From NCBI GenBank assembly GCA_963556825.1, contig CAUWAM010000005.1, forward strand, positions 2,609 through 66,608: a DNA stretch of 64,000 nt, given 5' to 3'. The DNA comes from an uncultured Clostridia bacterium. Its GTDB lineage: Bacteria > Bacillota > Clostridia > TANB77 > CAG-508. The notes below the pieces were generated by a model, which had not been told where the DNA came from, did not search any database, and saw nothing but the letters and a program-made list of their open reading frames with translations. Shown piece by piece: positions 3,833 to 14,360 of this stretch (position 1 is its first letter; every line of letters starts with the position of its first letter). The position numbers and the translations under genes were made by a program.

Positions 3833-4907
3833 TTAGTTTTTATATCTTTCTTGAATTTCTCTTATTTCGTCATAATGATTTCTTAATATATCTAAAAATA
3901 CATCATCTAATGCAGGATCAAATTGTGTTCCTTTACATCTTTCAAATTCTGCAATAACGACATCTAATGGTAAAGCATCTCTATAAGTTCTTTTTGAAGT
4001 CATTGCATCAAAAGTATCAGCAATTGCTGTAATTCTTGCAAAATAAGGAATTTCTTCACCTTTTAATCTTCCAGGGTAACCGATTACCATCATATTTTTC
4101 GTGATGGTGTTTTACAATTAGTATAATATCTTGGAAAATTGTTGCTGTTGAAAGTATGTGTGCGCCAATAGAGGGATGATTTTTGATTTCTGAATATTCA
4201 TCATCAGTTAGTTTTGATTCTTTTCTAATAATAGAATCAGGCACTCCAATTTTTCCAATGTCATGGAATAATCCACCTATTTGAAGTGTTTTTAGGTCAG
4301 ATTCTGGTAATCCTAAGTGTTGTCCAATTAATACAGAATATGCTGCCACTCTATCTGAATGACCTCTTGTATAAGGGTCTTTAGCTTCAACAGTATATCT
4401 TAATGTTTGAATACTTTCTAGGTATGATTTTTCTAGTTTTTCATATGTTGCTGATAATTGTGAGTTTATTTTTTTGATTTCATTCATTTGATCAATTGAT
4501 TTTATACCAGATTCGATTAATAATAACAATTGGTCAAATTTATCGCTTTTTTCACAATAACCTTGTATATCTAATCTTCTTATTGTTTCCAAAGGCGGAG
4601 CTAAGTCTTTATGCCCAGTAAGCAATAAAATATATAATTCTGTATTAAATTTTCTTATTTCCTCTACTACTTGATCTCCATGAAGGGGAGTCATAATAAA
4701 GTCAAGAATTAACATATCAAAATGTTCAGTTTTAATTTTTTCAATGGCCTCTAATGGGTCTGTAACACCGGTAAAATTATATCCAGATCTTTTTAAGAAA
4801 ATAGATAGAGAATCTATAATTCCTTCTTCATCATCTACAGCTAGTATTTTATATTTGAAATTTGATTTTTCTTCTTCTGTTTGTATGTTTTGTAGTCCTT
4901 TTCTCAT
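3833..4907 (-). pseudogene. response regulator, REC + HD-GYP (c-di-GMP phosphodiesterase-type) output, split by a 1-nt frameshift at 4080-4082
   Basis: ORF 4056..4907 carries the REC domain (ILAVDDEEG...MLILDFIMTP) and HD motifs (HSDRVA, FHDIGK, HHHEKYDG). ORF 3833..4093 continues GYPGRLKGEEIP...TSKRTYR in the +1 frame. Removing one base (the C of AAT-C-GGT) restores HHEKYDGNGYPG. Confidence 0.85.
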
Positions 4908-4989
4908 TTAATCACCTCTTATGATTATAATATAAATATATTTAACTGTGCAAATATTATATTAATAAATTTAGAAAAAATCAAGTATT

Positions 4990-5031
4990 TAAAAAAAATA
5001 AACAACAAAATTATTTATATTTTGTTGTTTA
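4990..5031 (-). terminator. rho-independent terminator after the histidine kinase gene
   Basis: 11-bp stem aaacaacaaaa/ttttgttgttt, followed on the minus strand by an 8-nt T-run. It separates the NRPS-HK unit from the regulator gene. Confidence 0.6.
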
Positions 5032-14291: not shown

Positions 14292-14331
14292 AATTTTCAC
14301 CCTTTTATAAAAAATTAATTTGTACAAAGGC

Positions 14332-14360
14332 ATTATATAATTAAAAAATAGAAAAAGCAA
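14332..14360 (-). promoter_or_regulatory. candidate sigma-A promoter of the NRPS-kinase unit
   Basis: Minus strand reads TTGCTT, 17 nt, TATAAT, about 40 nt upstream of ATG 14291. Confidence 0.4.

Follow-up and report, generated by a model that had tools for sequence, protein, structure and literature searches.

The agr loci of staphylococci and the com pherotype loci combine a hypervariable signal gene and sensor half with a conserved kinase core. In the Rpf/diffusible signal factor (DSF) system of Xanthomonas (RpfF, RpfC, and RpfG), the components are a synthase of a small molecule, a polytopic kinase, and a REC-HD-GYP regulator, encoded together, and the output goes to cyclic di-GMP (c-di-GMP) and not directly to DNA. 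Among nonribosomal peptide synthetases (NRPSs), the aureusimine synthetase AusA/PznA has the domain order A-T-C-A-T-R (A, adenylation; T, carrier; C, condensation; R, reductase), and the free amine of its aldehyde cyclizes to a pyrazinone. In the Vfm system of Dickeya, NRPS-type adenylation enzymes make the signal, polymorphism of the A domains defines groups of analogues, and transduction is by a two-component system (PMC9306890). For the reductase-terminated NRPSs of gut Clostridia (Guo et al. 2017; ruminopeptin/rup, Schneider and Balskus 2018), dipeptide aldehydes have been identified or predicted as products and understood as inhibitors of proteases, with the host or others as the target (PMC12327764). 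REC-HD-GYP regulators make up the RpfG family (bioRxiv 10.1101/2021.11.05.467447). Here we analyze a stretch of 64,000 nucleotides (nt), called the window below, from contig 5 of the genome of an uncultured Clostridia bacterium of the family CAG-508 (1.34 Mb in 29 contigs, 26% G+C, 96% complete), in which the minus strand of positions 3833-14360 holds three genes, for an NRPS, a histidine kinase, and a REC-HD-GYP response regulator. No published description of such an NRPS-kinase cassette was found in our literature searches.

In its predicted mode of action the locus is closest to Rpf: the gene of a small-molecule synthase is paired with that of a polytopic kinase, the regulator is of the REC-HD-GYP type, and the predicted output is to c-di-GMP and not directly to DNA. 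It differs in that an NRPS with a terminal reductase stands in the place of RpfF, which is of the enoyl-CoA hydratase type (crotonase fold), and in that RpfC is a hybrid kinase with REC and HPt domains, whereas the window kinase has neither by Pfam, so the system is not a member of Rpf. The host is a Gram-positive gut anaerobe, and the regulator keeps the full set of catalytic residues. To our knowledge, a hypervariable synthase-plus-sensor block is not a feature of Rpf. Such a block is the point of likeness to agr and com: it takes in the gene for synthesis of the putative signal together with the sensor half, its end is close to the sensor/DHp boundary, the core and the regulator are conserved, and divergent alleles sit on near-identical backbones. 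Unlike in agr and com, the putative signal is non-ribosomal instead of a processed ribosomal peptide, there is no processing enzyme of the AgrB/ComQ type, and the regulator is of the HD-GYP phosphodiesterase type and not a LytTR/DNA-binding autoinducer of the operon. Non-ribosomal signal chemistry, variation of the A-domain code, and a two-component system are shared with Vfm. However, the polymorphism of Vfm is linked to the ABC permease VfmG and not to a kinase sensor, and Vfm is a cluster of 26 genes, whereas here a single multidomain NRPS stands beside the kinase (PMC9306890). The system is a member of none of these families; the window enzyme itself belongs with the reductase-terminated NRPSs of the gut.

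Comparison with relatives shows that the NRPS and the polytopic kinase form one predicted operon unit, which occurs in about 150 related species and is kept across the entire order of small-genome gut Clostridia. As reconstructed from phylogenies and identities, it is further shown that the NRPS and the membrane-sensor half of the kinase are exchanged together, and that the kinase core and the REC-HD-GYP regulator stay with the backbone. The adjacency and the joint exchange suggest that the kinase reads the NRPS product. We read the locus best as a self-made-signal circuit akin to Rpf, agr, and Vfm, and assign this reading a probability of roughly 0.45; that the kinase would sense the product of its own operon is plausible, at a shade below even odds.

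Conservation of the NRPS-kinase unit

The comparison set comprised 163 distinct related kinase genes left after the removal of duplicates, each with a core at least 50% identical to that of the window kinase. The NRPS gene precedes the kinase gene in 144 of them, the kinase gene comes first in 7, a contig end cuts 9, and 3 have no NRPS. In 151 of the 163 the two genes abut on the same strand, across five families and in both gene orders, and the conservation of synteny in relatives, which the initial annotation had set beforehand as a test of its proposal, was thereby confirmed. A kinase-anchored scan of species genomes returned 71 loci, and among the 301 species genomes of the order, which measure 0.9-2.2 Mb, 241 (40 of 43 genera) contain a condensation domain. 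In the families f2-f5, a kinase abuts the NRPS in all 31 first-fetched loci with DNA past the NRPS; the DNA of L076 ends in the NRPS gene. Twenty further f5 loci, four of them longer versions of earlier ones, include the seven with the kinase first, three with an insert of 1.9-2.5 kb, and L205, whose DNA ends in the NRPS gene, and the gap between kinase and NRPS is 14-25 nt in six modelled kinase-first loci.

The regulator gene lies directly 3' of the kinase gene in 116 of the 163 loci and elsewhere in the locus in 30. A regulator-anchored scan gave 80 loci, "Clostridium sp. CAG:508" among them, and in five the regulator stands alone in the fetched DNA. The whole NRPS-kinase unit is inverted relative to the regulator in L233, L235, L262, L271, and L276. 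Other components vary as well: the distant loci L021, L022, and L024 have an NRPS without an R domain, a HisKA_7TM kinase, and a REC-DUF3369-HD-GYP regulator, with the Tex and HtrA flanks absent, and in family f2 (L078:190-8114) the NRPS ends in a thioesterase and the next gene after that of the kinase encodes a REC protein, with an output part of approximately 220 amino acids (aa) that has no Pfam match. The invariant is the NRPS plus the kinase; the HD-GYP regulator often accompanies them but can be separated, as is seen from the hairpin and promoter-like site that set it off here and from the insertions and inversions elsewhere.

Two side observations concern the makeup of individual loci. 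In L002, the 4 kb between kinase and regulator (11897-15849) hold a fragment of a type IV secretion system coupling protein and other genes on the opposite strand, and this insert looks like a mobile element that parted the regulator from the operon. Two kinase genes occur in some relatives (L264, L272, and L277, with approximately 2.5 kb of matches to the kinase core, and L106:9671-11059), the second either in tandem after the NRPS or on the opposite strand, and the second copies could be additional receptors.

Joint exchange of the NRPS and the sensor half of the kinase

Two sensor architectures are found on one kinase core. The class I sensor is HisKA_7TM-PAS, in kinases of approximately 600 aa; the class II sensor consists of about six transmembrane (TM) segments, a loop of approximately 115 aa, one more TM segment, and HAMP, in kinases of 660-700 aa, and has no Pfam match. 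In the tree of the core plus the regulator, 8 changes of sensor class are counted (bootstrap range 7-8), of which well-supported branches force at least 5; in the tree of the NRPS terminal module there is a single change, with full support. The number of NRPS modules changes with sensor class in five of five independent pairs on the core-plus-regulator tree. Module number as such was considered as the match to sensor class and rejected, because the one-module loci L016, L018, and L019 have a class I sensor and an NRPS of the class I lineage.

The same separation is visible between close relatives. Compared with its nearest relative, L001, the window is approximately 95% identical in Tex, 93% in the regulator, and 95% in the kinase core, and identity is 74% in PAS, 54% in 7TM, 63% in R, 72% in A2, and 33-48% in module 1. 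In the pair L033 and L039, core and regulator are 97% and 99% identical, sensor and NRPS 20% and 32%. On the DNA level these two loci are 96% identical until 38 nt into the NRPS gene, similarity is then undetectable, and it resumes at 95-98% after kinase codon ~390, near the HAMP/DHp junction. Metagenomic contigs present a range of states. One species cluster carries a block that is >99% identical in 14 contigs, a second cluster, with core DNA 96.5% identical, carries two unrelated blocks, and an L001-like cluster carries three block variants. The catalytic motifs are conserved throughout, which argues for a turnover of working alleles and not for decay. A partial Mantel test of sensor against NRPS distance, given the backbone, yielded r = 0.97 for class II (n = 25) and 0.67 for class I (n = 14), with p = 2e-4.

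These sensors also bear on an indirect explanation, in which the kinase would detect the membrane perturbation caused by a lipopeptide aldehyde, or a covalent modification by it, and the shift in c-di-GMP would serve producer protection or feedback and not communication between cells. The class I sensors, polytopic and with little extracytoplasmic mass, would suit intramembrane sensing, the product is predicted from the starter C and R domains to be amphiphilic and electrophilic, and the locus contains no dedicated exporter gene. However, generic membrane stress needs no sensors as divergent as 20-33% identity on near-identical backbones, and an HD-GYP output is not known as an immunity mechanism. 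We regard this explanation as improbable.

Possible signal sensing, physical linkage, and the predicted c-di-GMP output

In the self-made-signal circuit, the starter C domain would acylate residue 1, and the NRPS would make an N-acyl dipeptide whose residue 1 is Gly-like, which the R domain would release as an aldehyde or alcohol. The lipophilic product would partition into the membrane and be bound by the 7TM domain of the kinase translated from the same mRNA; the kinase would alter the phosphorylation state of the RpfG-type regulator, and the HD-GYP domain of the latter would hydrolyze c-di-GMP. The cell would thereby sense a small molecule of its own making, in an autocrine or quorum-like manner, and the circuit would come in species-specific variants.

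The kinase contains HisKA_7TM, PAS, HisKA, and HATPase_c domains, its match to HisKA_7TM (PF16927) has an E value of 7.9e-38 (family cut-off, 28.6 bits), about 7 hydrophobic segments lie in residues 1-220, and the H, N, G1, and G2 boxes are kept in 54 of 54 relatives. No ligand for HisKA_7TM is known in the sparse literature on this domain. In the regulator, the REC and HD-GYP catalytic residues, RTYR included, are all conserved in 48 of 48 relatives. Its output domain is enzymatic and without a DNA-binding domain by Pfam, so the pair is not an ordinary cluster-situated transcription regulator. Five other adjacent kinase/regulator pairs elsewhere in the genome are already matched, which leaves the NRPS-linked kinase and the HD-GYP regulator as obvious partners.

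A different account of the same locus is co-expression with no match between sensor and product. The product would act outside the cell, perhaps as a peptide aldehyde that inhibits proteases of the host or of competitors, and the kinase would respond to an unrelated cue from the membrane or the environment. The shared operon would only co-regulate production and the c-di-GMP state, and the sensor would be swapped merely as a neighbor. Several observations agree with it and weigh against sensing of the product. Joint replacement of NRPS and sensor is expected without any functional tie, because the two parts are physically contiguous, and crossovers are possible only in conserved DNA, that is, on the HtrA side and in the kinase core. 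In two-module loci, 7TM co-varies with R at 0.50, with A2 at 0.36, with C2 at 0.35, with C1 at 0.13, and with A1 at 0.02, the last two values being not significant, and this decay runs parallel to the distance along the NRPS, which is the pattern expected of linkage. The A1 code is not followed by the sensor: L001 and L002 have both A codes identical, yet their 7TM domains are only 53% identical, and the window differs from L002 in A1, yet its 7TM is 68% identical. Synonymous divergence (dS) is 0.5-1.6 everywhere, near saturation, which makes selection and recombination inseparable. The kinase-first loci would offer a natural linkage-breaking test, but the cassette is of one type in all seven, which leaves no swap to score. 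In addition, enzymes with this NRPS architecture have been linked to protease inhibitors (Schneider and Balskus and Guo et al., as summarized in PMC12327764).

Other points against a signal circuit concern its two ends. The regulator is missing from the fetched DNA in 15 of the 163 loci, and family f3 has no HD-GYP regulator after the kinase. No PilZ protein was found in the genome, and no c-di-GMP-I riboswitch was found genome-wide, control genomes being equally silent. No Sfp-type phosphopantetheinyl transferase (PPTase) was found in the 96%-complete genome, although the NRPS looks intact; the genome has one PPTase gene of the ACPS family (contig C6:74983-75321), with a 125-aa frame of AcpS size.

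Linkage nevertheless leaves unexplained, as far as the compared loci indicate, the persistence of the adjacency through deep divergence, both gene orders, inversions, and changes of flanks, release domains, and regulators. Co-expression also does not account for the finding that each of the two sensor architectures, both polytopic but unrelated to one another, goes with a single NRPS lineage, and the predicted dependence of the kinase on the NRPS promoter is a layout typical of self-signal loops. We consider co-expression without matching rather unlikely, and keep the self-made-signal circuit as the preferred reading.

The genome encodes two GGDEF proteins, one of them REC-GGDEF, and two HD_5 proteins, and no EAL protein was found in it. 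With only two candidate phosphodiesterases, the HD-GYP regulator would be a major drain of c-di-GMP. An orphan REC-GGDEF regulator, without an adjacent kinase, is encoded on contig C21 (9071-9739); this protein may be a further target of the NRPS-linked kinase, which would permit opposing control of c-di-GMP.

Approximately 80% of the sampled species, with genomes of ~1-2 Mb, keep an NRPS of 4-10 kb joined to a sensor kinase, and the guts of humans and animals commonly harbor these bacteria. The cassette is costly and conserved, so it is likely central to their lifestyle. A broader proposal, which goes further than the present comparisons make probable, is that in CAG-508 and its sister families the N-acyl amino- or peptide-aldehydes made by the NRPSs would be private signals, specific to each species, read by the polytopic sensor domain of the kinase of the same operon and converted to c-di-GMP hydrolysis; that the at least about 20 cassette variants would be signal/receptor alleles reassorting on a conserved kinase core; and that the gut "peptide aldehyde" NRPSs would be primarily autoinducer synthases and not sources of host-directed protease inhibitors. 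If the kinase reads the product, the cassettes would constitute a large family of non-ribosomal, species-specific gut signaling systems, the known gut peptide-aldehyde synthetases would be reframed, and a first class of ligands would be at hand for HisKA_7TM. Otherwise, the locus remains a clear natural instance in which a biosynthetic gene and a sensor domain are replaced as a module while the signaling core stays fixed.

Predicted product, frame break, and sequence features

The NRPS of the window (Table 1) is the sole one of the genome, since the two C-domain matches found genome-wide both lie within its gene. The order C-A-T-C-A-T-R is shared by the window and 16 complete relatives, and versions with one and three modules also occur. 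The HHxxxD motif of C1 is kept in 45 of 45 relatives, and the T2 serine and the R-domain triad are each kept in 49 of 49. The Gly-like A1 code may be set beside DILQLGMIWK, a Gly code (PMC12283262); the A2 code, to which no substrate was assigned, is near-identical in L001, L002, and L009. Across the exchanged blocks, A-domain codes vary and include Gly-, Pro-, Val-, Thr-, Ser-, and Asn-type codes plus several without a substrate match. In a comparison of C1 with PDB structures, ordinary elongation C domains match best and starter C domains score lower, so that the subtype is not settled.

The initial annotation expected a pyrazinone or dihydropyrazinone, and this was not borne out. Like AusA, the window enzyme has two modules and a terminal reductase predicted to release an aldehyde, but AusA begins with an A domain and the window NRPS with a C domain whose conserved motif leads one to expect N-acylation. 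With a C domain at its N terminus, the enzyme is more likely to make an N-acyl Gly-X aldehyde than a pyrazinone, because an N-acylated product should lack the free amine needed to cyclize. A gene for an acyl-CoA/AMP ligase-like AMP-binding protein adjoins the NRPS in L030 (2632-4368, minus strand), L063, L044, L036, L047, L062, L026, and L021, and may supply the acyl starter; the host genome has four paralogues of this ligase, located elsewhere and 39-45% identical.

The regulator gene is the next one on the same strand, as annotated initially, but a frame break inside it had been missed. The break lies at gat ggt aat CGG Tta ccc; in frame 0 a stop is reached 10 codons on, and the +1 frame runs on with GYPGRLKGEEIP. 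Reading CGGT as one glycine (G276) gives a regulator of 357 aa with the motif HHHEKYDGNGYP. With CGGT at 4082-4079 read as Gly, and only then, since genetic code table 11 splits the domain, the residues that define the RpfG family are all found: the acidic pocket, phospho-Asp, Thr, and Lys of REC, and H, HD, HHE, D, GYP, and RxY[K/R] of HD-GYP.

The split could mean that the circuit is broken here, the regulator being a pseudogene or the extra C an assembly error, with no working output. The splitting of the gene at 4082 under table 11 and an assembly in 29 contigs would agree with this, and the pattern of CGG codons speaks against it. Both halves of the regulator are stop-free, and the break falls as C-GGT on a column that is Gly in 48 of 48 relatives. 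The rule that CGG marks a break rejoins all 13 broken NRPS and regulator genes tested in close relatives, including six sites in the NRPS of L009, and also the split DHHW gene of the window (32572-32575, plus strand, CGGA, G263). In-frame CGG is absent from the NRPS gene of the window and rare in the genome, with 41 cases in long open reading frames (ORFs); the median distance from such a codon to a stop is 19 codons, compared with 108-137 codons for CGA, CGT, GGG, and AGG. The tRNA-Arg genes of the genome are ACG, CCT, and TCT, and no gene for tRNA-Arg(CCG) was found in it. A broken circuit is very improbable on these grounds, and the regulator is probably made whole.

On the minus strand, the junction of NRPS and kinase reads aacGGAGGTaatattgATGAATAActtc. 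The overlap of the NRPS stop (TAA, 6849-6851) with the kinase start (ATG at 6856) that the initial annotation described was found as an 8-nt overlap, preceded by GGAGGT. As a kept trait it did not hold up, because only about 14 of the junctions of 53 relatives overlap; most are gaps of 0-25 nt with a strong Shine-Dalgarno (SD) sequence of their own. An SD sequence is found at the junction in nearly all relatives, and in 46 of the 53 the kinase starts, with an SD sequence, between -47 and +25 nt from the NRPS stop. The promoter-like element annotated before the pair is present, but in this 25% G+C DNA such sites are at chance frequency (97 found, 100.9 expected), so it is supported by position alone; promoter prediction was dropped as evidence. 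The "strong terminator" after the kinase proved to be a hairpin followed by eight T residues (T8), with a 14-bp stem that is almost wholly A-U and a folding energy of -12 kcal/mol (z -3.1; 1 of 200 shuffles folds as well). A terminator scanner missed it because the stem has <3 G-C pairs. The hairpin is followed by a second promoter-like site, so the regulator is probably not obligatorily co-transcribed with the kinase and can probably have its own transcript, apart from that of the NRPS and kinase.

Table 1. Positions of the genes, domains, and predicted signals of the NRPS-kinase-regulator locus in the window
Feature	Position	Strand	Basis or remark
Promoter-like TTGCTT-17-TATAAT, 41 nt upstream of the NRPS ATG	14332..14360	-	-35 matches TTGACA at 3/6
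NRPS gene, 2,480 aa, C-A-T-C-A-T-R	6849..14291	-	Pfam: Condensation x2, AMP-binding x2, PP-binding x2, NAD_binding_4
C1, N-terminal (starter-position) condensation domain, HHIISDA	12957..14291	-	Pfam
A1 adenylation domain, code DILQIGVVWK (Gly-like)	11478..12902	-	Motif-anchored extraction
T1 carrier, GLDSIG serine motif	11202..11399 (approximate limits)	-	Pfam PP-binding
C2 condensation domain, HHIVMDG, residues 1044-1469	9885..11162	-	Pfam
A2 adenylation domain, code DIYTVGIILK	8337..9824	-	Motif-anchored extraction
T2 carrier, GGDS serine, residues 1996-2057	8121..8306	-	Pfam
Terminal reductase (R), GxxGxxG and S/T-Y-K triad	7182..8000	-	Pfam NAD_binding_4, E 1e-47
Shine-Dalgarno GGAGGT of the kinase, within the NRPS 3' end	6864..6869	-	7 nt before ATG
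Kinase start overlapping NRPS stop, ATGAATAA	6849..6856	-	8-nt overlap; TAA 6851-6849, ATG 6856-6854
Histidine kinase, 604 aa: HisKA_7TM (6167-6829), PAS (5822-6160), DHp + CA core (5045-5812)	5042..6856	-	Pfam
Hairpin + T8, intrinsic-terminator-like, between kinase and regulator	4989..5032 (stem 5032-4998)	-	Folding
Promoter-like TTGATT-17-TATAAT before the regulator	4956..4984	-	10/12 matches; chance-level class of site
REC-HD-GYP (RpfG-family) response regulator	3833..4907	-	Pfam Response_reg + HD_5; table 11: ORFs 4907..4056 + 4093..3833
In-frame CGG then T (C-GGT), +1 break at the G of the GYP motif	4079..4082	-	Inside HHExxDGxGYP

The genes around the locus are ordinary, with Tex and DUF975 on one side and a divergent HtrA protease, a hexapeptide acetyltransferase, and a 4HBT thioesterase on the other. 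The ORF at 19363-29697 (plus strand; 3,444 aa), at first suspected to be a second synthetase, encodes a giant surface protein of the M26 IgA1-protease-like/GLUG/dockerin type and lies outside the NRPS locus. No riboswitch was found at the NRPS locus. Elsewhere in the window, Rfam gave a match to the pemK RNA motif at 51535-51633 (plus strand), with 49.9 bits against a gathering score of 34.8.

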